Of a stretch of 64,000 nt of DNA, positions 26,377 through 37,196 are shown in pieces. Positions within the stretch are counted from its first letter, which is position 1, and each line of letters begins with the position of its first letter. The notes beneath the pieces are model-generated. The model searched no databases, was not told the DNA's origin, and was given only the letters and a program-made list of their open reading frames with translations. A program made the translations under genes and the position numbers. The stretch is from assembly GCA_015059095.1 (NCBI GenBank), contig SVBA01000006.1, positions 17,003-81,002 on the forward strand. The letters run 5' to 3'. The stretch is from Erysipelotrichaceae bacterium (GTDB taxonomy: Bacteria; Bacillota_I; Bacilli_A; RFN20; CAG-449).

Positions 26377-26988
26377 ATGATTAACTATCCAAACAAAAAA
26401 GTAGTCAATAAACAAGAAACCAACCTCTTACCTGCAAAAAAGAAACAAAAAGTATTAAATGCAGCAAATAGAGGTATGGATTTTGAACATGCCGTTTCTT
26501 TATCTTGTCAATATTATGATGAAAAACAAAGAGCAATCATCACAAAAAGACCTACTCCAATCAAAATAATTTCTGCAGATTATAAATTAGCAAAAATCAC
26601 AGAAGCATATTTTGAAAAGCAATCAAACACTGACTATAACGGAGTATACAAAGGAAAATATATAGACTTTGAATGTAAAGAAACACTTTCTAAAACTTCT
26701 CTTAGTTTTAACAACATTCCAAGTCACCAAATTAAACACTTAAAAAAGGTATTAATGCATGGTGGCATAGCTTTCTTTATGATTTATTATAAAACTCTAG
26801 ATGAAGTATATATCGTAGATGCAAATGATATCATCTCTCTTTATGAAAATGGAGATAGAAAATCAATCACTTACGAACATACAAAAGAGATAGGCACATT
26901 AGTTGAACAAGGCTTTATACCACGTCTGAAATTTTTAGATGCTGTCGATAAGGTCTACTTCAATGAAAACACTAAAGAAAATTATTAA
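26377..26988 (+). CDS. recU: Holliday junction resolvase RecU
   Basis: NRGMDFEHAV...KRPTPIKI...TDYNGVYKGKYIDFECKET...HQIKHLKKV matches the conserved blocks of RecU. ponA follows, as in the Bacillus recU-ponA operon. Confidence 0.85.
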   Translation: MINYPNKKVVNKQETNLLPAKKKQKVLNAANRGMDFEHAVSLSCQYYDEKQRAIITKRPTPIKIISADYKLAKITEAYFEKQSNTDYNGVYKGKYIDFECKETLSKTSLSFNNIPSHQIKHLKKVLMHGGIAFFMIYYKTLDEVYIVDANDIISLYENGDRKSITYEHTKEIGTLVEQGFIPRLKFLDAVDKVYFNENTKENY

Positions 26989-29284
26989 AACTTTTACTTC
27001 TATTCTACTAATATCAGCGTTTCTAATCTTTATCGGTTTAGGAGCGTTTTTTATTAATTCAATTTCAAACATACAAACAAAAGATATATCTACTATCGTT
27101 ACTCCAAAATATTCTCTAATAACAGATTCTAATTCTAGAATTATTGAGGATTTTAGGCAAAATTCAATATCACATGTTGATATAGAAGAAATACCACAAG
27201 TTCTAAAAGACGCATTAATTAGTATAGAAGATCGAGAATTTTATATTCATAATGGAATTAATGAAAAAAGAATTCTATCATCATTAATTAGTAATCTTAA
27301 TCCAAATAATAATACTCAAGGAGGATCAACATTAACTCAACAACTTGTCAAAAATTTATTACTAACAAACGAAAAATCTTATAAAAGAAAAATACAAGAA
27401 GCGTATCTTTCTATCCTTCTAGAAAAAGAATTAACTAAAGATGAAATATTAGAACTATATTTTAATAGAATCTATTTTGAACAATCTATTCCTGGCATCC
27501 AATATGCTTGTAATAAATTTTTCAATAAAGATGTTAAAAATATCAATTTACCTGAAGCAGCCTTATTAGTAGGTTTAGTTAAATCCCCTTCTTATTATTA
27601 TCCTTTAACTAATCCAGATAGAGCAAATCAAAGGAAAAATGAAGTATTAAAGGCTATGTTAGACAATAATAAAATTTCAAAAAATCAATATAACATAGCC
27701 TCTTCTTTCCCTATTGAAAAATTAATTTATAAAAAGGAAAATACAAAAATTTCATACCCATATCAATCTTATTTAGATATCGTTTATAAAGAAGTAAAAG
27801 AATTAACTAACTATGATCTATTTAACACACCTTTAAAAATAGAAACATATATAGATACATATTTACAATCTCATATAGATGAAATACAAAAAGGTAATAT
27901 TATTCCTTTTAAAAATGAGTATCAACAAATAGGAGGAGTGGTACTTGATAAACATTCAAATATTATTGGTGTTATAGGTGGAAGAGATTATAATGGAAAA
28001 AAATTATATTCTCATGCATTCGATATAAAAACTAGTCCTGCTTCTACTATTAAACCAATTTTGTCCTATGCTTTAGGTATTGAATATTTACACCTAAACA
28101 CATTAACTACATTAGAAGATAAAGAATATTATTATCCTAACTCTACAATATTAGTTAATAATGCTGATAAATCTTATTTAGGTAAAATTCCATTAATTGA
28201 CGCTTTAGGTTATTCAAGAAACACCTGTGCAGTATCAACTTTAGAAAAAGTAATTTCAAAAATAGGACAAGAAAAAGTTGTTGAATATTTAACTAAACTC
28301 AACATTATGGATGAAGGTCCTTTTACTTATTCTTATGCAATAGGCGGAATGAAATATGGAACTTCTCCTATAAATATTGCTGGAGCGTATTCAATGTTAT
28401 TAAATAATGGATACTATGTTAAACCATCAACCATTAAAAAAATTACAAACTTAGAAACTAATGAAATAATATATGAAGATAATAGAACAAAAGAACAACT
28501 TATATCCGAAGAATCAAGTGATATAATAACTAATACTCTAGAAAGAATTGTTGATAGTAATTATCTTTCCATGAAGGAAGCAAAACCTAATAATATAAAA
28601 ATCGCAGGTAAAACAGGTACAGGGGCATATCCTCAATCATTAATAAAAAAATATAATCTTCCTAGTAACGCAGATAAAGATATTTGGTTTAGCGGTTATT
28701 CTCCAAACTATACTTGCTCTATCTGGAGTGGTTTTGATGAAATAATTGAAAATAAGAAAACTTATTTTTCTGGTAAAGAAGGAAAAAATATCCCTAAACT
28801 TATTTTCAAAGAACTTATTAATCTATTAGAAACAAAGAAACAAAATTTCGAAATAACCAATAGCTTAACAAAAGTATATGTTGTTAAAGGTCTTGATAAA
28901 GCTTATTTACCAAATGATATTGTCCCATCAAAATATATAGATTTTGCTTATTATAAAAAAGATGATATTCCAAATGAAATATTACCTTATCCAACTTTTA
29001 ATAAATTAGAAGATATAAATGTAGTTTTATACGAAAATACCCTATATTTTTCCATTTTAAATTCGAATATTACTAATGATTTATATTCATCATTTTATGG
29101 AGATAAGGGTTATCTACTTGAAGTAAAAATCAATGATAAAATTATACAAAATTTCTATACAACAACAGAGATAGAGTTTTCGCTAGAAGAAAAAGGAGAA
29201 TACCAATTTTCATTAAGCGAATCATATAAAAACAATTACAAATTAAAAGGTGATTCTTATCAAATCACCTATCTTTTAGAATAA
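26963..29284 (+). CDS. ponA: Class A penicillin-binding protein 1A (glycosyltransferase plus transpeptidase)
   Basis: The GT51 motifs are EDREFY, GGSTLTQQL and RKIQE. The transpeptidase motifs are STIKP, SRN and KTGT. An N-terminal TM anchor is present. The start is the ATG at 26963, preceded by AAGGT, and it overlaps the recU 3' end. Confidence 0.9.
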   Translation: MKTLKKIIKTFTSILLISAFLIFIGLGAFFINSISNIQTKDISTIVTPKYSLITDSNSRIIEDFRQNSISHVDIEEIPQVLKDALISIEDREFYIHNGINEKRILSSLISNLNPNNNTQGGSTLTQQLVKNLLLTNEKSYKRKIQEAYLSILLEKELTKDEILELYFNRIYFEQSIPGIQYACNKFFNKDVKNINLPEAALLVGLVKSPSYYYPLTNPDRANQRKNEVLKAMLDNNKISKNQYNIASSFPIEKLIYKKENTKISYPYQSYLDIVYKEVKELTNYDLFNTPLKIETYIDTYLQSHIDEIQKGNIIPFKNEYQQIGGVVLDKHSNIIGVIGGRDYNGKKLYSHAFDIKTSPASTIKPILSYALGIEYLHLNTLTTLEDKEYYYPNSTILVNNADKSYLGKIPLIDALGYSRNTCAVSTLEKVISKIGQEKVVEYLTKLNIMDEGPFTYSYAIGGMKYGTSPINIAGAYSMLLNNGYYVKPSTIKKITNLETNEIIYEDNRTKEQLISEESSDIITNTLERIVDSNYLSMKEAKPNNIKIAGKTGTGAYPQSLIKKYNLPSNADKDIWFSGYSPNYTCSIWSGFDEIIENKKTYFSGKEGKNIPKLIFKELINLLETKKQNFEITNSLTKVYVVKGLDKAYLPNDIVPSKYIDFAYYKKDDIPNEILPYPTFNKLEDINVVLYENTLYFSILNSNITNDLYSSFYGDKGYLLEVKINDKIIQNFYTTTEIEFSLEEKGEYQFSLSESYKNNYKLKGDSYQITYLLE

Positions 29285-29931
29285 TGTCTACAAATATCTT
29301 TCAATTTACATTCATCACATTTTGGTCTTTGACTAACACAATTATATCTACCAAAATGAATCATTTGATGATGGAATAATACTCGTCTTTCTTTAGAAAC
29401 TAGTTTTAATAATTTTAATTCCACATCAAGAGGTGTATCGTTTATTGCTGCTAGATAAAGTCTTTTGGAAACTCTTTCTACATGGGTATCTACTGCAATT
29501 ACTGGTTCATTATATAATTCCCCTCTAACTACATTACTAGTCTTTCTTCCTACTCCTGGAAGTTTCATTAACTCTTCTTGAGAATTTGGAACATTAGAAT
29601 CATATTGTTCGATCAACATTTTTGCAATTTTAATAACGTTTTGTGCTTTTGTTTTAGCTAACCCTAAAGTTTTAATAATTTCAAACACTTCTTCAAAAGA
29701 ACAATTTGCTAGTGCTTCTAATGATGGATATTTTGAAAATAAAACTTCTGTTACTCTATTTACACTTTTATCTGTTGTTTGAGCACTTAACATAACTGCA
29801 ATTACTAATTCATATGGTTTTGAATAATTTAGTTCACAATGTGCACTTGGCAATATCTCATCAAAGTAAAATATTATTTTTCCTATTCTTTCTTTATTAG
29901 TCATCTGTCCATTTAGTATTCGCAATGTCAA
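29269..29931 (-). CDS. nth: Endonuclease III
   Basis: It has an HhH-GPD fold with LPGVGRKT. The C-terminal 4Fe-4S ligands are C-x6-C-x2-C-x5-C (CVSQRPKCDECKLKDIC). It overlaps the ponA 3' end convergently. Confidence 0.9.
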   Translation of the reverse strand: MTLRILNGQMTNKERIGKIIFYFDEILPSAHCELNYSKPYELVIAVMLSAQTTDKSVNRVTEVLFSKYPSLEALANCSFEEVFEIIKTLGLAKTKAQNVIKIAKMLIEQYDSNVPNSQEELMKLPGVGRKTSNVVRGELYNEPVIAVDTHVERVSKRLYLAAINDTPLDVELKLLKLVSKERRVLFHHQMIHFGRYNCVSQRPKCDECKLKDICRHYSKR

Positions 29932-30556
29932 TAGTGTCTTCTAATTCTTTTTTCCACTTTTCATTGACTGCAGAATATCCTTCCTCTTTTAAATCTTTTG
30001 ACGATAATCTTTTAATAATAATTTTATCAATAGATCGAATTGTCACTCTTTTATTTTTGCTAATACATTCATGAAGAGAATCAATGATTACACTTTCCTC
30101 AATTCCTTGTGCAACCCATTCTCTAACTTTTTCAAGTTCTACAGGAGATAAACTTCTACCTAGTTCTTTTTCAAACGTTCCATAAATATTAGAAATAGAA
30201 TGTTTCCTATTATCATTATCTTCAATCGCATTATAAGTAATTAGGTCACGAACAAAATTTTCCGAAATCTTTTTATAAGTTGGTGTGATCGAAGTAACTA
30301 AAGAATTCGAATTAGGTAAATTAGAATATTCTAAAAAGCCTCTATTCATTAAACTAACTAAAATAGAATCTAACTCTTTAACATCTAAACTCATCTTAAG
30401 CGCTAATAGTTCACTAGTTACTAAAGTAGGAGTCTCTTTTAAAATATTATCAACAACTAAAAGTACAGCTAAATCATATTCATTTAGTCCTAAAGATTTA
30501 TATGTATCTACTAATAGATAACGATAATCGATTTGATTAATTTTAAATTTGTTCAT
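29897..30556 (-). CDS. dnaD: DnaD-domain replication initiation/membrane attachment protein
   Basis: The C-terminal DnaD-like region reads YGTFEKELGRSLSPVELEKVREWV. Its position directly upstream of nth matches Bacillus dnaD-nth. Confidence 0.75.
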   Translation of the reverse strand: MNKFKINQIDYRYLLVDTYKSLGLNEYDLAVLLVVDNILKETPTLVTSELLALKMSLDVKELDSILVSLMNRGFLEYSNLPNSNSLVTSITPTYKKISENFVRDLITYNAIEDNDNRKHSISNIYGTFEKELGRSLSPVELEKVREWVAQGIEESVIIDSLHECISKNKRVTIRSIDKIIIKRLSSKDLKEEGYSAVNEKWKKELEDTIDIANTKWTDD

Positions 30557-30618: not shown

Positions 30619-32277
30619 TTAATTTTTACAAACTTGTTTGAAAACTCTTAAGAAATTTTTATAGAATACTTTATCAATTTCTTCTTGAGTAAACCCATTT
30701 TCAAGCATTGCTTTCTTTAAATCATGAGTTTTAGTACAATCTGACATTCCAACTGGAGTTTCTATTCCATCAAAATCAGAGCCTAAGGCTAAATTATCAA
30801 TGCATCCTAAAGATTTAATATGTAACATATGTTTAACAATATCATTAATTTGATTTTCTTTAGTATTATTTGAAACAAAATCTGGGCAATAATTCATTCC
30901 CATTACACCTTTATTTTCATGCAATTTTAAAATCATATCATCGGTCATATTTCTAGCCCAAGGATGAATGCTTCTTGCGTTACTATGTGAAGCAACAATC
31001 GGTTGAGTTGAATATTTAATACAATCATAGAAGCCCTTATCTGAAAGGTGAGAAGTATCAATAATTATTCCTAGTTCATTCATTTTCTTAACTACTTCTA
31101 TGCCAAATTCAGTCAATCCATTTTCCGTATCAATTTTTAAGTAATCGTTTTCTTTTAAATTTCTTTGAAGATTAGGATAACCAATTTCATTTTTAAAATT
31201 CCATGTTAGACATATCATTCTTACACCTAAAGAATAAAGATGTTCTAACTTTTCAATACTACCCTCAATAACCCCACCTTCTTCAATAGTTAATAAAGCA
31301 GATAATTTATGTTTAGATTTATTCTCCATTAACTCTTTGTAAGAAGTAACTTGAGAAATAATATTTTTATTATTCTCCATTTCTCTTTTAAAGATATCTA
31401 TCATTTTTAAAGTTCGATTATATAAATCACCTCTAGCAAAATACATAAACACTGCAAAACATTGCATTAAGTATTCTCCTTCATATAGTCGTTTAAAATC
31501 AATATGCATTCTTGGATTAGAATAAAATCCGTTTTTTTCTACAAGTTCCCAAGTTAAGCTATCACAATGCATATCAATACAATTCATTGGATTTTTATTA
31601 TTAAATCTAACCGGAACTATTGTATCGATTTCATATGTTTCTAATAGTTCAATTGCTTGTTTTTCGCCAAAAACCTTCATTTTATTGATTTCTTCCATTA
31701 CTTTAGAGTAGTTAATATTTTTTAGTAAATGTTTATATTCTCTAATAGAAGTTTTTAATTCTTCATCTAATTCAAATCCTAAAGAATAACTAAAGCGAAT
31801 GCCTCTTAATATTCTTAATGGATCTTCATTAAATCTAATTGAAGGTTCACCTATCATTCTAATTACTTTTCTTTTTAAATCTTCTTCGCCATTACAATGA
31901 TCAATAACTTCCCCTTTAGAATTTATATATATTGCGTTAATAGTAAAATCTCTTCTTATATAATCTTCTTTAGTAGTTTTTACAAATTCTATTTTTGAAG
32001 GATGTCTATTATCTAAATATTCTCCTTCTTTTCTTAAAGTAGTAATATCCACCTTAACATTATTAAACTTAATAGTTGTTGAACCCAAAGAAGAAAAAGA
32101 GTCATTTATTTCTAAAAATTTTTTCATGTCTTCTAAAGTAGCATCACTTACAAAGTCAAAATCTAAAATTTCTTTTTCTAACAAGTAATCTCTTGAAGTT
32201 CCTCCAACCATATATAAAGAAAATCCATTATCTTCAAATAATTTCGATAATTCTATAAATATACTAGGTAATTTCAT
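30619..32277 (-). CDS. Fusion protein: class-II nucleotidyltransferase (CCA/poly(A) polymerase head domain) plus M19 membrane-dipeptidase-like metallopeptidase domain
   Basis: Residues 1 to about 215 carry the head-domain motifs GGTSRD (GGxxRD), DFDFVSD (DxD) and RRDFTINAIY. Residues from about 220 to 552 carry M19 motifs in order: IDMHCD (DxHxD), IEEGG, DTSH, ASHSN and GSDFDG. It is a single uninterrupted ORF. Confidence 0.7.
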   Translation of the reverse strand: MKLPSIFIELSKLFEDNGFSLYMVGGTSRDYLLEKEILDFDFVSDATLEDMKKFLEINDSFSSLGSTTIKFNNVKVDITTLRKEGEYLDNRHPSKIEFVKTTKEDYIRRDFTINAIYINSKGEVIDHCNGEEDLKRKVIRMIGEPSIRFNEDPLRILRGIRFSYSLGFELDEELKTSIREYKHLLKNINYSKVMEEINKMKVFGEKQAIELLETYEIDTIVPVRFNNKNPMNCIDMHCDSLTWELVEKNGFYSNPRMHIDFKRLYEGEYLMQCFAVFMYFARGDLYNRTLKMIDIFKREMENNKNIISQVTSYKELMENKSKHKLSALLTIEEGGVIEGSIEKLEHLYSLGVRMICLTWNFKNEIGYPNLQRNLKENDYLKIDTENGLTEFGIEVVKKMNELGIIIDTSHLSDKGFYDCIKYSTQPIVASHSNARSIHPWARNMTDDMILKLHENKGVMGMNYCPDFVSNNTKENQINDIVKHMLHIKSLGCIDNLALGSDFDGIETPVGMSDCTKTHDLKKAMLENGFTQEEIDKVFYKNFLRVFKQVCKN

Positions 32278-32291
32278 AAAATTTCTCCTTT

Positions 32292-35147
32292 TTAAACTAA
32301 ATATTTAACTTCTTCACCATTTTCATAAATACTTACATCATAAGTCTTATCAATATTTATCATTACGCCTAAACCATGGAATTGACTATCTTTAAATTGT
32401 CCTAAATAAACTGAGCCATCACTAAAACAATATGCTCCTACTCCACAGAATTCATTGTTTTGGAAATAACCAATGTATTTATCTTGATTTGGTAATAATA
32501 ATTTACCAAATCCATGCATTTTTCCATTTATTAATTCTCCAAAGTATAAATCATCACCAAAATATTTAAAACTGATTGGTACCGTTGGAATTCCTGGGAA
32601 CATAGTGTTCTTGATAGGTCCTTTATAAATATTTTTAATTAATTTATCTCCATTACACATTGCAATCCAAACTTGTCCAAATGAAACACTATAGAAAATA
32701 CCTTTTTTCACAAAATTATCATAGAACGCTAAATTGAAATGATTATTAGTTGAATAGTCAAAGCAATAACCACACATTTTATCTTGGACATATTCACCAA
32801 CTTGTACTCTACCATTTTTAAAAATATACGCTCCAAAAGTATCTTTATATAAATTTTTATGGACCCCAGAATAAATATCTCCATTATTATAATAGAAAGT
32901 ACCTAATAAATCTGGTCTATTATTTTTTACCATACTAATTAATTTATAATTAGAATAATAAAAAGCTTTTTGTTCAGGTGGAATTTTTGCATTTTCAAAA
33001 GTGTATCCATGCACTGTTTTATTTGGATCTTGATAAACACCATTAATCCATTTACCTTCCTTAATGACTTTACCACTCTTATTATAATATTTACCTTCAC
33101 CGTGATTTAAATTACCTTTAAATTCACCAACATATTTTTCGCCATTTTTATAATACATGGTTCCTTTTCCTTCTAGTTTACCATTAACAAATTGACCATC
33201 ATAAGTGCTTCCATCAGAGTAATAATATGTTCCATTACCATCCATTACATTTTGTTTAAATTGACCAACATATTTTGATTTATTGGCAAAATACATTGTC
33301 CCTTTTCCATAGCGCATATTATTAATAAACGCACCAACATATTTATCACCATTAGCGTAAGTCAAAGTACCTTGTCCGTGTTTAAATCCACTTTTAAATT
33401 CACCTTCATAGACATCGCCATTATTTGAAATATACTTACCTTTTCCTTCGTAATTACCAACGCCATTTACTTCTCCTACATAACTAGATCCATCTACATA
33501 TTTTTCAGTTACTATTTTTGGTCCAGTTGAAACAGTTTGGGTAGGCTTTGATACTGTATTTGTAGTTGTTGATTTTATAACATTTGTTACTTTATTAGTA
33601 TTATATGATCCTATAGAATCATTTTTACTAGTTGTTTTTGTAGTATTATTACTTGTCGAATAAGAACTTATAGAGTTTAAATCAAATGAAAATTCTTTTT
33701 TATGTTGATCATTTTCATAATATTTATTTACTGCTTGTCCATTTTTTGAAATAAATCTCATTTGTCCATGATACATATTATCCTTCCAATGACCATGAAC
33801 AAAATCACCATTCATCATATAAAATGTTCCAACACCATGCTTTTTGCCATTTTTAAAACATCCACAATATCTACCACCATAAGTATAATTAAGTGTTCCA
33901 ATACCATGAGGAACACCATTTTTTACTTCACCACAATAAGTCCCTTCGTCAGTATAAATTTTAGTAATTTTATACGATCTAGTTCCAGATATAGACTGAA
34001 TTTCAAGACTATTATCTTTATTAATATATTTATCACCAGAATCAACATCAACAATTCTATTTGTTCGATAAACACAAGGTCCAAAAGCACCTTCTCTATA
34101 AAAAGCCATACCTCTTCCTTCAGCTAATCCACCATTATAATTAACTAAATCCATTCTTCCATCAGGATAAAAACGTAAACATTCTCCTACAAATCCATAT
34201 TTTAATTTAGTACAGAATCCATATACATGTTCACCACTAGGTAAAAAATAACTTGCATATCCTTCACAATTATCATTTATAAAATTCCCATAAAGATAAT
34301 CCCCATTACTATATTTAAAGCTACCTCTACCATATCTTTTTGATGAATTTGTTTCCCCATAATATTCACCATCATCAAAAGATAATCTATTTACTACTGT
34401 ATTTAAATTAAATTTTTGATTAGAACGAGAAGAAGAATTCAAATTATATCTACCATTAGAATAATTACTACTACTGTAATCACCGTTTAAACGATAATGA
34501 TGAGCATGATTACATTCATCTACTCTATCTATAGTTTTATATAGATTTTCTTTATTAACAAAACGGAAGTTATCTTCTTTTTTCCATCCATTAAATCTAT
34601 AATATAATGTTCTATTAGTACGTGTGTGACTCCATCTTTCAAATTCACCTTTTCTATAAATTTCTAATGCTAAATAGTAATCATTTGTTTCATCAATATA
34701 ATAATCATTTACTTCCATTACTTTTGTTTCTCTTAAATGAGTACTATTTTGATGATACTCCATATAATCTAAATCATATTCTCTAGTTTCCAAAAGATCA
34801 CAAATTCTAAATTCAACTTTAAAATTATATTTACCTGGTTTTAATGACAATGAAATACCCTCACTTGAAGGATGATTTAATATTCTAATTCCATTAACCC
34901 AGAAATTAAGAATACATGCGACAACAGAAGTAGGTTTATAACCTTTATCATTTCCAAGAAAATAAAGAGGAACGAAATGAAAGTTATATCCTACATCCGC
35001 TCTAGCAAGAGAATCGATTCTTTCTAATCTTCTTTGCGTTTCATCTTTACTAGAATCGTAATCCTTCAATTCTTCATATGTTGTGTTTACAAAAAATGAT
35101 TTGATATATTTTGTATCTAAACTTTTATCATAATAAAAATTAAACAT
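32292..35147 (-). CDS. Large cytoplasmic MORN-repeat protein
   Basis: It is 951 aa with no signal peptide. It has three clusters of YxGxxxxGxxHGxG MORN repeats, for example YEGEFKSGFKHGQGT and YVGEFKGNLNHGEGK. A Ser/Thr/Asn-rich linker lies between clusters. It is 15 nt upstream of the NTase-M19 fusion gene on the same strand. Confidence 0.7.
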   Translation of the reverse strand: MFNFYYDKSLDTKYIKSFFVNTTYEELKDYDSSKDETQRRLERIDSLARADVGYNFHFVPLYFLGNDKGYKPTSVVACILNFWVNGIRILNHPSSEGISLSLKPGKYNFKVEFRICDLLETREYDLDYMEYHQNSTHLRETKVMEVNDYYIDETNDYYLALEIYRKGEFERWSHTRTNRTLYYRFNGWKKEDNFRFVNKENLYKTIDRVDECNHAHHYRLNGDYSSSNYSNGRYNLNSSSRSNQKFNLNTVVNRLSFDDGEYYGETNSSKRYGRGSFKYSNGDYLYGNFINDNCEGYASYFLPSGEHVYGFCTKLKYGFVGECLRFYPDGRMDLVNYNGGLAEGRGMAFYREGAFGPCVYRTNRIVDVDSGDKYINKDNSLEIQSISGTRSYKITKIYTDEGTYCGEVKNGVPHGIGTLNYTYGGRYCGCFKNGKKHGVGTFYMMNGDFVHGHWKDNMYHGQMRFISKNGQAVNKYYENDQHKKEFSFDLNSISSYSTSNNTTKTTSKNDSIGSYNTNKVTNVIKSTTTNTVSKPTQTVSTGPKIVTEKYVDGSSYVGEVNGVGNYEGKGKYISNNGDVYEGEFKSGFKHGQGTLTYANGDKYVGAFINNMRYGKGTMYFANKSKYVGQFKQNVMDGNGTYYYSDGSTYDGQFVNGKLEGKGTMYYKNGEKYVGEFKGNLNHGEGKYYNKSGKVIKEGKWINGVYQDPNKTVHGYTFENAKIPPEQKAFYYSNYKLISMVKNNRPDLLGTFYYNNGDIYSGVHKNLYKDTFGAYIFKNGRVQVGEYVQDKMCGYCFDYSTNNHFNLAFYDNFVKKGIFYSVSFGQVWIAMCNGDKLIKNIYKGPIKNTMFPGIPTVPISFKYFGDDLYFGELINGKMHGFGKLLLPNQDKYIGYFQNNEFCGVGAYCFSDGSVYLGQFKDSQFHGLGVMINIDKTYDVSIYENGEEVKYLV

Positions 35148-35299: not shown

Positions 35300-35375
35300 G
35301 CCAATGGGTATTTAGCTCAGCTGGGAGAGCATCTGTTTGACGTACAGAAGGTCGGCGGTTCGATCCCGTCAGTAC
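35300..35375 (+). tRNA. tRNA-Val (anticodon GAC), with encoded CCA
   Basis: It folds as a 76-nt cloverleaf. The acceptor stem is GGGTATT/AGTACCC. The D-arm is GCTCAGCTGGGAGAGC. The anticodon stem is TCTGT/ACAGA with loop TTGACGT. The T-arm is GGCGGTTCGATCCCGTC, and ACCA follows at the 3' end. Confidence 0.85.
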
Positions 35376-35387
35376 CCACCATTTAGA

Positions 35388-35423: not shown

Positions 35424-36164
35424 TTATTGGTACGTATTTAAAAATTCTTTTATTGATTTTGGATAACCACTTATATGAACATATCTTTTTTTTAATTCCT
35501 TTTTTGGGTTAATTAGTTTTATTTTTTTAAATTTAATATCTCGAGAATAAGTATAATCTTTGTCAGAATATTTTATTTGATACCCTACAAGGTAATCATC
35601 TTTAAATTTCATAGTTTTTTTATAATCTAATGAACTATCTAATCCATTATACTCAACAGTTAAATTATTATTACCTGAAGAAAAATATTGTTCAGTTATG
35701 TAAGAGGACTTATCTTCAACAACATTGTTTATATAAAAAGATTTATAATCAAAATAATTTAAAATTTCTTTTTGATATCGATCATAGGCACTATAAAATG
35801 TTGAGTATCTTTTTTCTCCATTAATATTTACAAAATAAAAACCTTTCCTTTCATCTTCCTTATACATATGGATTGATAAGATACGACTACAACTATATTT
35901 GTCAATTAGCATCAATTTTAAATTTAAATTTTTACTTTTTACATCGTATTCAAAACAACTATAATATTGAATTTCATTGTTCACTTTTCGTTTTTCTTCA
36001 ATACAATAACTAGTAGTCAAATTTTCTCTGTTAAAATTAATCTCAATGTTGTTATTACATTTATCTATTTTTTTTAAAGCTTCATCATATGTTATTATTG
36101 TACCTTTGCAAGATGTTAATACTAATAAAGATGAAATTAATAATAGTTTTAATTTTAGTTTCAT
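35424..36164 (-). CDS. Hypothetical lipoprotein
   Basis: It has a signal peptide and the lipobox LTSC. The body is rich in Tyr, Lys and Asn. The start is the ATG at 36164, preceded by GGGGTGGTG. The ORF track starts at a GTG 12 nt upstream. Confidence 0.55.
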   Translation of the reverse strand: MKLKLKLLLISSLLVLTSCKGTIITYDEALKKIDKCNNNIEINFNRENLTTSYCIEEKRKVNNEIQYYSCFEYDVKSKNLNLKLMLIDKYSCSRILSIHMYKEDERKGFYFVNINGEKRYSTFYSAYDRYQKEILNYFDYKSFYINNVVEDKSSYITEQYFSSGNNNLTVEYNGLDSSLDYKKTMKFKDDYLVGYQIKYSDKDYTYSRDIKFKKIKLINPKKELKKRYVHISGYPKSIKEFLNTYQ

Positions 36165-36386
36165 ATCGTTCACCACCCCTGATTTGATAAATCATTAATT
36201 GAATAATCTTTTTAATAGTTTTTTATCATCACTAATACTTTTTTTAGCAACCTTTTGCATATTACTTTTTTTCTTTTCATGAAAACTCTCACGTTAATCA
36301 TATTCTATCTTCAAAAACCTAATATACTGTTCAACACATTTCAATTCATATATAACCATACTGCTTTGATTTGATTTTCCGAAAAC

Positions 36387-36502: not shown

Positions 36503-37078
36503 TTAATAAAACAATCTATAATTATTATCTATACTTATAAAAAGCGAAATCATAAATGTTACAGCGAAAATAATTAACGAAACAATAAACAATATAATAA
36601 CTATTATAGTCTTTTTTTTATAAGAAAAGGAGATAAAATTAAATAACAAAAACAAACTAACTGTACCAGATGATATGTAAATAACAAGAACTATAATGAA
36701 CCATTTTTCTAAAAGTCCAAAAATTGATATTGGTTCTAGACAAAAACTATCAAATGGACCACAATTATAAAAATATATATCTGCAGACGAAAAGAAAATA
36801 GCAACAATCAATAATAATAAGTATGCACTAGTTAAAATAAACAATTTATTTCTTTTATTTTTTTCTTTAAAATTGTTCTTCAATTCTGAGTAAGAAATTA
36901 ATTCTTCCTCATCAATCTTAAAATATTTACATAATTGTGCTATATTTACATCACTTGGTAGTCCAAGTCCCCTTTCCCATTTTGACACTGTTGTTCTAGA
37001 AACATATATTTTATCAGCTAATTCGTATTGAGAAAGACCTTCCTTTTCTCTTAATTCTTTTAATTTATCTTTGAACAT
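36503..37078 (-). CDS. Membrane-anchored XRE-family HTH transcriptional regulator
   Basis: The HTH_3 region (LSQYELADKIYVSRTTVSKWERG) is followed by four predicted TM segments. The start is the ATG at 37078, preceded by AAGGAG. The ORF track begins 108 nt upstream with no RBS. Confidence 0.7.
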   Translation of the reverse strand: MFKDKLKELREKEGLSQYELADKIYVSRTTVSKWERGLGLPSDVNIAQLCKYFKIDEEELISYSELKNNFKEKNKRNKLFILTSAYLLLLIVAIFFSSADIYFYNCGPFDSFCLEPISIFGLLEKWFIIVLVIYISSGTVSLFLLFNFISFSYKKKTIIVIILFIVSLIIFAVTFMISLFISIDNNYRLFY

Positions 37079-37196
37079 TATTATCTCTCCTTTAATTAAT
37101 TTCATTATAAGGTATTTTAAAATCAGAATGGTAGCGACTTTTAGGACACTCTTAACTCTACTCCCAGTAGAGTCTGTGTTTTTCACTAAAAAGTCC

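Follow-up and report, generated by a model that had tools for sequence, protein, structure and literature searches.

A truncated cca orthologue fused to an M19 dipeptidase in uncultured low-GC Bacilli

Can one bacterial gene unite a tRNA nucleotidyltransferase with a dipeptidase, and if so, what would the product do? The question is raised by a 64,000-nt stretch of an Erysipelotrichaceae bacterium genome (contig SVBA01000006.1, positions 17,003 to 81,002; hereafter the window, with a G+C content of ~27%). A preliminary description had placed two adjacent open reading frames (ORFs) on its minus strand, one of 951 aa at 32292-35147 with MORN repeats and one of 552 aa at 30619-32277 combining the motifs of a class-II nucleotidyltransferase with those of an M19 dipeptidase, and both are present as placed there. 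Here we report that the 552-aa ORF is a genuine fusion gene whose nucleotidyltransferase half is the positional orthologue of cca, cut down to its head and neck. The fusion is organised as follows, with the evidence for each part in brackets.

30619..32277, minus strand: fusion gene, 552 aa in a single ORF, truncated cca head and neck plus M19 dipeptidase (ORF list, Pfam, NCBIfam, 86 clusters, AlphaFold2 (AF2) model)
31633..32277, minus strand: class-II nucleotidyltransferase head and neck, aa 1-215 (PF01743, weak PF12627, alignment to 6ibp and 1miv, Foldseek match to 1miv)
31588..31632, minus strand: junction or linker, aa 216-230 (family alignment; predicted local distance difference test (pLDDT) of 93-97 in the AF2 model)
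30622..31587, minus strand: Peptidase M19 domain of amidohydrolase fold, aa 231-552 (PF01244, ligand conservation, phmmer, Foldseek)
30619-30621, minus strand: stop codon of the 552-aa fusion (ORF list)

The N-terminal half carries every motif of a class-II CCA-adding enzyme, including the EDxxR template for CTP and ATP. Its head matches the Pfam family PF01743 (PolyA_pol) at aa 21-140 with an E-value of 1.9e-29 and 103 bits against a cut-off of 23, a sub-threshold fragment of the neck family PF12627 follows at aa 167-200, and within aa 1-215 lie motif A (GGTSRD...DFD), the A-B intervening region, motif B (RRDFTINA), motif C, motif D (NEDPLRILR) and motif E. Across an alignment of 72 fusions, G25, G26, R29, D41, R108, R109, D110, N114, E151, D152, R155 and E196 are invariant, as are the motif C residues D126 and D133, while D30 and D39 are conserved in at least 90% of the sequences. 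The head and neck align with the experimentally characterised CCA-adding enzymes 6ibp and 1miv from aa 14 to aa 204 with one single-residue indel, and no gap falls at aa 80-100, the flexible loop between motifs A and B, which an earlier study describes as governing the switch from C to A addition (PMC2910056). Foldseek superposed the N-terminal half of the predicted structure on the head and neck of 1miv over 226 columns at 1.9 Å. What the protein lacks is the rest of the enzyme. The NCBIfam equivalog for CCA enzymes of Bacilli, NF009814, is matched at model positions 16-229 of 396 with a score of 193, below the cut-off of 290, and this partial match means that the head and neck are there while the body and tail are missing. 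Consistently, PF13735 found no match in the 552-aa protein, and hidden Markov models (HMMs) of the body and tail had zero matches anywhere in the window.

The C-terminal half matches PF01244 (Peptidase_M19) at aa 231-548, covering profile positions 6-319 of 319 (E-value 3.8e-88; 296 bits against a cut-off of 26). Residues H237, D239, E332, H410, H431, R442 and D501, which we take to correspond to the metal ligands, the catalytic Asp and the carboxylate-binding Arg of DPEP1, are invariant in the 72 aligned fusions. A phmmer search with this half led to the structures 3neh and 3lu2 of Listeria Lmo2462 (E-value 7e-38), and Foldseek placed the modelled domain on the same M19 dipeptidases with a template-modelling (TM) score of 0.91 at 2.4 Å, as a (beta/alpha)8 barrel; among solved structures, Foldseek found none spanning both halves. 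Judged by its residues, this half would be a catalytically complete dipeptidase domain with a full binuclear metal site. Both domain families named in the preliminary description were therefore found by their Pfam profiles, and its reading of the motifs also stands: the head motifs GGxxRD, DxD and RRDFTINA occur without a body or tail, as PF01743, the coverage of NF009814 and the 72-sequence alignment all indicate, and the M19 set (DxHxD, EEGG, DTSH, SHSN, GSDFDG) is complete, with its ligands invariant. The N-terminus is not a full-length canonical CCA-adding enzyme, the outcome that would have refuted that description, yet neither is it a new kind of nucleotidyltransferase, being a truncated orthologue of the known one.

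An ORF of this kind might have arisen by a frameshift or an assembly error that merged two neighbouring genes, and contiguity had been singled out earlier as a point to verify. When 5.8 billion proteins were searched, both Pfam domains were found in one ORF in 86 clusters (90% identity) of 524-566 aa that are 41-98% identical, and the 25-residue junction, at 4-72% identity to the window sequence, shows zero length variation across this family. Within the window species, and only there, an identical MORN protein has been recovered from independent samples, on at least 10 contigs; a single 552-aa ORF follows it on three of the four contigs displayed, and the fourth stops within the fusion gene. 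The junction is also modelled confidently by AF2. Because the 86 clusters, the fixed-length junction and three of four same-species contigs all bear out the single ORF, we regard the merging of two genes as practically out of the question. A different origin, by fusion of neighbouring genes that are still unfused in relatives, was likewise considered and rejected, since the closest standalone M19 genes sit elsewhere, adjoining recR or a Met-type ABC transporter, away from cca and dnaD. As a separate observation, in two distant lineages, and not in the window, an Opp-type oligopeptide ABC transporter operon lies 2-4 genes 5' of the fusion (L002 1-6758 and L003 1-5718); the transporter might supply peptides to the dipeptidase half, or the proximity may be fortuitous.

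The identity of the nucleotidyltransferase half follows from its genomic position, for which the neighbouring features are needed.

35306..35381, plus strand: tRNA-Val(GAC) with its 3' CCA encoded, divergent neighbour of the fusion (ARAGORN)
29897..30556, minus strand: dnaD, 3' neighbour of the fusion, 62 nt past the fusion stop (PF21984, PF07261)
29269..29931, minus strand: nth (endonuclease III), final gene of the probable MORN-fusion-dnaD-nth unit (PF00730, PF10576; synteny)
L001 9767-9842, L002 9833-9908, L003 9931-10006, L009 9807-9882, L010 9824-9899, L011 7736-7811: tRNA-Val(GAC) in relatives

Seven fusion loci besides the window (L001-L004 and L009-L011), with heads 43-70% identical to that of the window protein, show the order tRNA-Val, fusion, dnaD, nth, ponA and recU, in which tRNA-Val and ponA lie on the strand opposite to the fusion; with tblastn, dnaD was detected at each of the seven, surE at L001 and L009 only. 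In L001, from a relative of 83% identity, the series reads surE, opposite-strand tRNA-Val(GAC), fusion, dnaD, nth, then ponA and recU on the opposite strand. The same slot is occupied in other lineages by standalone proteins consisting of the head and neck alone, which we call minis: at L089-L091 the order is hbs, dapB, mini, dnaD, nth, with opposite-strand ponA and recU, presumably collinear with dapB...cca...dnaD-nth-ponA-recU of B. subtilis. In two further low-GC loci, L092 and L093, a full-length cca of ~360-370 aa lies directly 5' of dnaD-nth, these two calls being broken by long-read frameshifts and by a scaffold gap, respectively. In every fusion, mini and full-length cca examined, dnaD follows directly on the 3' side. 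Since the slot 5' of dnaD-nth holds a full-length cca, a mini or a fusion according to lineage, the nucleotidyltransferase half of the fusion is the positional orthologue of cca.

The divergent tRNA-Val(GAC) gene lies 5' of the fusion in every fusion-bearing locus, in the window with the MORN gene in between, and its 3' end reads ...CCC-A-CCA in the window and in all six related loci listed above. Between the window and L001, conservation extends over ~65 nt of the promoter region of this tRNA gene. The juxtaposition of a tRNA gene with one whose product is a tRNA 3'-end enzyme could be due to chance or to shared regulation; no further tRNA genes occur in the 10 kb past the window in the window species.

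How far the truncated form extends was examined by an exhaustive HMMER search of aa 1-228 against 1.84 billion cluster representatives. The relatives of the head include numerous 221-231-aa proteins whose C-terminus coincides with the start of the fusion linker, as well as proteins of 443-505 aa in which the M19 match is weak or undetectable. With a profile built for the minis, the best 120 clusters all fall within 202-247 aa, some of them on contigs of 0.4-1.3 Mb, and all nucleotidyltransferase motifs are invariant in minis. NCBI labels these proteins as 'CCA tRNA nucleotidyltransferase' (Bacilli and Erysipelotrichales metagenome-assembled genomes (MAGs), e.g. MCH5171314.1, MGI6714037.1 and MCR4911952.1), and the public label of the fusion is 'membrane dipeptidase' only (e.g. 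MDD6302466.1). One relative, P0145 (478 aa), joins the same head and neck to a GT2 glycosyltransferase domain (PF00535, aa 237-354), so the truncated cca has gained more than one kind of C-terminal partner. Three other proteins carry two or three class-II nucleotidyltransferase heads in a chain (P0122, 612 aa; P0130, 1312 aa; P0161, 1453 aa), and P0161 also has S-layer homology domains.

In class-II CCA-adding enzymes the head supplies the catalytic carboxylates and the neck the Asp and Arg for templating CTP and ATP; the acceptor and TpsiC helices of the tRNA are recognised by the body and tail (Tomita and Yamashita review, PMC3925840). The loss of precisely the tRNA-recognising parts could therefore mean that the head and neck have been repurposed away from tRNA, tailing other RNAs or nucleotidylating a small molecule or peptide, and that a full-length cca elsewhere in the genome carries out CCA addition. 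The second partner seen in P0145 would fit such a history, as would the faster evolution of the head, which is ~70% identical among close relatives in the window sub-clade against ~92% for the M19 half, and a second cca elsewhere is possible, a profile of the body and tail alone having given 10 matches, none co-resident with a mini or a fusion, too few to be informative in an index that is insensitive for so poorly conserved a region. Yet the gene corresponds by position to cca, and EDxxR, motif B with its ribose discrimination and the A-B region are invariant and match those of bona fide CCA-adding enzymes. No second class-II nucleotidyltransferase, and no body or tail, was found in the window or in the next 10 kb of the species contig (~74 kb together), and no other class-II nucleotidyltransferase in the 20-kb flanks examined. 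Truncation in situ of the sole copy is the simplest history, and we consider repurposing unlikely.

The fate of the dipeptidase half in sister lineages shows which part of the protein persists. Ten relatives (P0123, P0125, P0126, P0129, P0131, P0138, P0124, P0127, P0137 and P0136, of 498, 492, 505, 465, 456, 443, 364, 359, 332 and 275 aa) were aligned to the window protein. All 13 nucleotidyltransferase motif residues checked are intact in every one of them, while H237, D239, H410, H431 and D501 have been substituted or deleted throughout the series; the bridging E332 is kept in four (P0125, P0126, P0131 and P0123). The M19 part shortens stepwise along the series, with barrel-core segments and the C-terminal helix still recognisable. 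From their residues, these forms read as a natural decay series of a pseudo-enzyme. What has been kept throughout the clade thus appears to be the nucleotidyltransferase moiety; the dipeptidase would be dispensable in some lineages, because it decays or vanishes in sisters whose nucleotidyltransferase motifs are intact. Within the window's own sub-clade the M19 domain is the more conserved of the two, and both halves appear to be under strong constraint there.

We therefore favour, as reasonably probable, the reading that the 552-aa protein is the cca product of its lineage, which has kept the head and neck, lost the body and tail, and now carries an intact M19 domain at its C-terminus, combining CCA repair with an independent dipeptidase. 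The head and neck would add or repair C74-C75-A76 on tRNA 3' ends by the two-metal, protein-templated mechanism, with weak anchoring and low affinity for the tRNA in the absence of the body and tail. Weak anchoring would be tolerated because the tRNA genes encode their own CCA, as seen for tRNA-Val, and the enzyme would be needed for repair only. The variable termini of these enzymes are described as dispensable for catalysis (Mörl-lab preprint, bioRxiv 10.64898/2026.05.29.728689), and an ancestral reconstruction study reports that modern bacterial enzymes pair low tRNA affinity with efficient catalysis (PMC9728577). The M19 domain would be an independent cytosolic dipeptidase, probably of the same L-Xaa-D-Xaa type as its characterised relatives, and might at most also lend bulk or dimer contacts.

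Several observations weigh against this reading. The encoded CCA on which tolerance of weak anchoring depends was read from one tRNA gene family, tRNA-Val(GAC), in the window and six loci, and a second full-length cca may lie elsewhere in these genomes. The phylogeny does not fix the order of events: in a bootstrapped neighbour-joining tree of the heads the split of truncated from full-length enzymes appeared in 48 of 200 bootstraps and neither the fusions nor the minis were ever monophyletic (0 of 200 each), and in the corresponding tree of M19 domains a split uniting all fused forms appeared in 3 of 200. The trees thus do not decide between an early fusion followed by repeated loss of M19 and an early truncation followed by the gain of M19. 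The remaining observations concern the barrel itself and hint that it may be more than a passenger. AF2 modelled the 552-aa chain from the 72-sequence alignment with a mean pLDDT of 93.6 and a predicted TM score (pTM) of 0.90, and the high pTM together with the confident linker implies a fixed relative arrangement, in which the M19 domain is predicted to dock rigidly on the neck. Catalytically dead M19 domains of 220-290 aa are retained in several lineages. Finally, the fused M19 domains are less acidic than their closest standalone counterparts, with a net charge of -1.3 against -5.0 per 100 aa and a pI of 6.2 against 5.0, in a comparison of clade with clade that is confounded by base composition (low-GC lysine bias).

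These features of the barrel, together with the fixed length of the junction, are what would be expected if the M19 domain had been recruited as a substitute for the body and tail, anchoring the tRNA at its acceptor/TpsiC helix or dimerising, so that the nucleotidyltransferase depends on it, while the peptidase activity is secondary and has been lost in some lineages, where the barrel stays on as a pseudo-enzyme scaffold. That account runs up against the minis, which at 222-230 aa are the commonest form and keep all the motifs. A standalone mini modelled alone reached a pLDDT of 93.4 and a pTM of 0.89 with the secondary-structure layout of the fusion head, and the mini head and neck are predicted to fold autonomously. 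Since minis are abundant without any C-terminal domain, the barrel does not appear to be required for the role of the head and neck; the M19 part showed no RNA-binding motif, and the difference in charge is open to the compositional bias just mentioned. We judge the recruitment of a substitute barrel to be rather unlikely. An extended version, which we hold to be improbable as well, would have the barrel replace the body and tail as an active enzyme in the window species and as a pseudo-enzyme in its sisters, docking on the neck for tRNA anchoring or dimerisation and perhaps coupling 3'-end repair to aminoacyl or peptidyl hydrolysis, with the minis as a later stage in which the head and neck work alone. 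Were it true, the family would be a natural experiment on the minimal CCA builder, and a metabolic enzyme fold would have been re-used as an RNA-binding module.

The question of what the fusion does also extends to the MORN gene next to it, for which three more features are needed.

32292..35147, minus strand: 951-aa cytoplasmic MORN-repeat protein (PF02493, 148.7 bits; ORF list)
32285..32290, minus strand: Shine-Dalgarno sequence AAGGAG of the fusion gene, within the gap after the MORN stop (read from the sequence)
29248..29270, no strand assigned: bidirectional terminator-like hairpin between the convergent nth and ponA (terminator scan)

The MORN protein is as first described, with three clusters of repeats and no signal peptide: PF02493 is matched at 148.7 bits in five passing stretches, no other Pfam domain is found, seven repeats fit the strict pattern, the three clusters are set apart by an S/T/N-rich linker, and neither a signal peptide nor a transmembrane segment is predicted. 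The close spacing proposed earlier holds for the adjacency of the two genes, although the gap from the MORN stop to the fusion ATG measures 14 nt and not 15, with the Shine-Dalgarno sequence 7 nt 5' of the ATG. A terminator scan of the minus strand gave no scoring site at the MORN-fusion, fusion-dnaD or dnaD-nth junctions and a weak 5-bp hairpin inside the MORN ORF only; the first clear minus-strand terminator-like site past the MORN start is at 29270-29248, after nth. Because of the 14-nt gap and the absence of a scoring terminator at the junction, co-transcription of MORN and fusion is probable, and MORN, fusion, dnaD and nth probably form one transcription unit in the window species. A promoter scan returned 58 sites against 62.5 expected from shuffled sequence, with no excess, and was not used. 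The 3' ends of ponA (26939-29284, plus strand) and nth (29269-29931, minus strand) overlap convergently by 16 nt (29269-29284), and the hairpin at 29248-29270 is common to both.

Outside the window species the arrangement is not conserved. No MORN homologue was found by tblastn in any of the seven other fusion loci, including that of the 83%-identity relative, where surE, tRNA-Val and the fusion follow one another directly, and a scan of Joint Genome Institute (JGI) metagenomes yielded one weak MORN relative at 34% identity. The fusion therefore recurs in relatives and its MORN neighbour does not, so that we rejected MORN as a conserved partner, and with it the scaffold role suggested in the preliminary description. 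Compared with L001, in which surE is followed after 60 nt by the tRNA, the window has extra DNA on both sides of tRNA-Val. Between surE and tRNA-Val this comprises genes for an HTH_3 protein with predicted membrane segments (36503-37186, minus strand) and for a 250-aa protein (35424-36176, minus strand). The latter has a lipobox-like N-terminus, LLVLTSC. The extra DNA on the other side of tRNA-Val is the MORN gene. No integrase was seen near the extra DNA around tRNA-Val, and its G+C content is like that of the rest of the window. We infer that the MORN gene is a recent, species-specific insertion between tRNA-Val and the fusion, and merely co-transcribed with the latter.

These results bear on the earlier proposal that the two active sites are coupled, acting on aminoacyl- or peptidyl-nucleotides or on aminoacyl-tRNA 3' ends, or that the fusion serves in signalling or defence on a MORN scaffold. 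In its favour, both active sites appear intact and conserved in the window clade, their predicted arrangement is rigid, and the MORN gene is probably co-transcribed in the window species. However, MORN is missing from all the related fusion loci, and the fusion sits in a conserved cca slot within a housekeeping neighbourhood (DNA replication and repair, cell wall, recA and rny), with an inheritance that looks vertical and syntenic. PADLOC gave no match for the fusion, the MORN protein or the 250-aa protein, and generic helix-turn-helix (HTH) matches only for the protein at 36503-37186; on the strength of these PADLOC results and the housekeeping neighbours, a defence system was rejected. Obligate coupling is further argued against by the sister lineages, in which the M19 site is destroyed or deleted while the nucleotidyltransferase site is untouched. 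We consider coupling, signalling or defence very unlikely.

Two observations concern the wider neighbourhoods. The sporulation genes spoIVA and SpoVIF lie near the locus, and a YutH-type spore-coat protein is encoded in the window species (L090 7053-8862, L091 7077-8883 and L099 18680-19591); these uncultured low-GC Bacilli include at least some spore formers, or descendants of spore formers, with a peptidoglycan wall (PBP1A, DivIVA). At L002 20288-21113, an MNT/HepT-type toxin-antitoxin pair (NTP_transf_2 plus HepT-like) lies 3' of recA and is unrelated to the fusion.

CCA-adding enzymes are the textbook case of template-independent, high-fidelity RNA polymerisation. In a clade of uncultured low-GC, gut-type Bacilli their orthologue appears to have been cut to the head and neck, which occur alone, with an apparently live M19 domain or with a decaying one. 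If these proteins are the sole tRNA nucleotidyltransferases of their genomes, they represent the natural minimum of the enzyme, and it becomes testable how much tRNA anchoring is needed for specificity and for termination after A76. Domain replacement and pseudo-enzyme decay could also be followed along the ready evolutionary series that the fusion, its eroded forms and the minis provide. On a practical level, automated pipelines may score genomes with the fusion as lacking cca, because it is annotated only as a membrane dipeptidase. In the literature searched in full text we found no paper on the nucleotidyltransferase-M19 architecture or on natural cca genes reduced to the head and neck, and both the architecture and the truncated clade appear to be undescribed there.

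The nearest known systems include the class-II CCA enzymes of Bacilli from Geobacillus stearothermophilus (1miv) and Planococcus halocryophilus (6ibp). The fusion shares with them motifs A-E, EDxxR and an undeleted A-B region at ~30-35% identity over the head and neck, its predicted structure superposes on theirs at 1.9-2.3 Å, and in related lineages the full-length gene occupies the same slot 5' of dnaD-nth; unlike them, it lacks the ~170-190 aa of body and tail (the C-terminal part of PF12627 and PF13735) and has the M19 barrel in their place. In CC-adding enzymes the flexible loop between motifs A and B is deleted, whereas the fusion shows no deletion there relative to 6ibp and 1miv. The tRNA-binding beta-subunit of the heterotetrameric bacterial glycyl-tRNA synthetase (GlyRS) is described as carrying a module that resembles the body and tail of CCA-adding enzymes, which would make this module mobile in evolution, a point that bears on its loss from the fusion. 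Class-II nucleotidyltransferases that depart from the canonical single CCA-adding enzyme set a precedent in that their C-terminal regions modulate specificity and not catalysis (PMC3925840), but these keep the body and tail, and none is reported fused to a peptidase.

The M19 half resembles the dipeptidases Lmo2462 (3lu2/3neh), Streptomyces Sco3058 (3id7) and human DPEP1 (1itq) in its full PF01244 domain, its barrel and its H-x-D/E/H/H, Arg and Asp residues, and it has the TWN variant in common with Lmo2462, the structure it matches at a TM score of 0.91. It differs in being joined to a nucleotidyltransferase and in having no membrane anchor or signal peptide, and it is less acidic than its closest standalone homologues, whose genes lie elsewhere in their genomes. 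Also close are the standalone minis (~218-231 aa) of uncultured Bacilli and Erysipelotrichales MAGs, which are truncated at the same point, have the same invariant motifs, occupy the same slot and group with the fusion heads in trees, but have no C-terminal domain and have dapB as upstream neighbour in place of tRNA-Val; the window fusion differs from them in keeping a complete and apparently active M19 dipeptidase. The fusion thus shows a known enzyme family in a truncated and fused state that appears not to have been described before; the MORN operon adds little to it, and what makes it interesting is above all that the tRNA-binding half has been lost across the clade.

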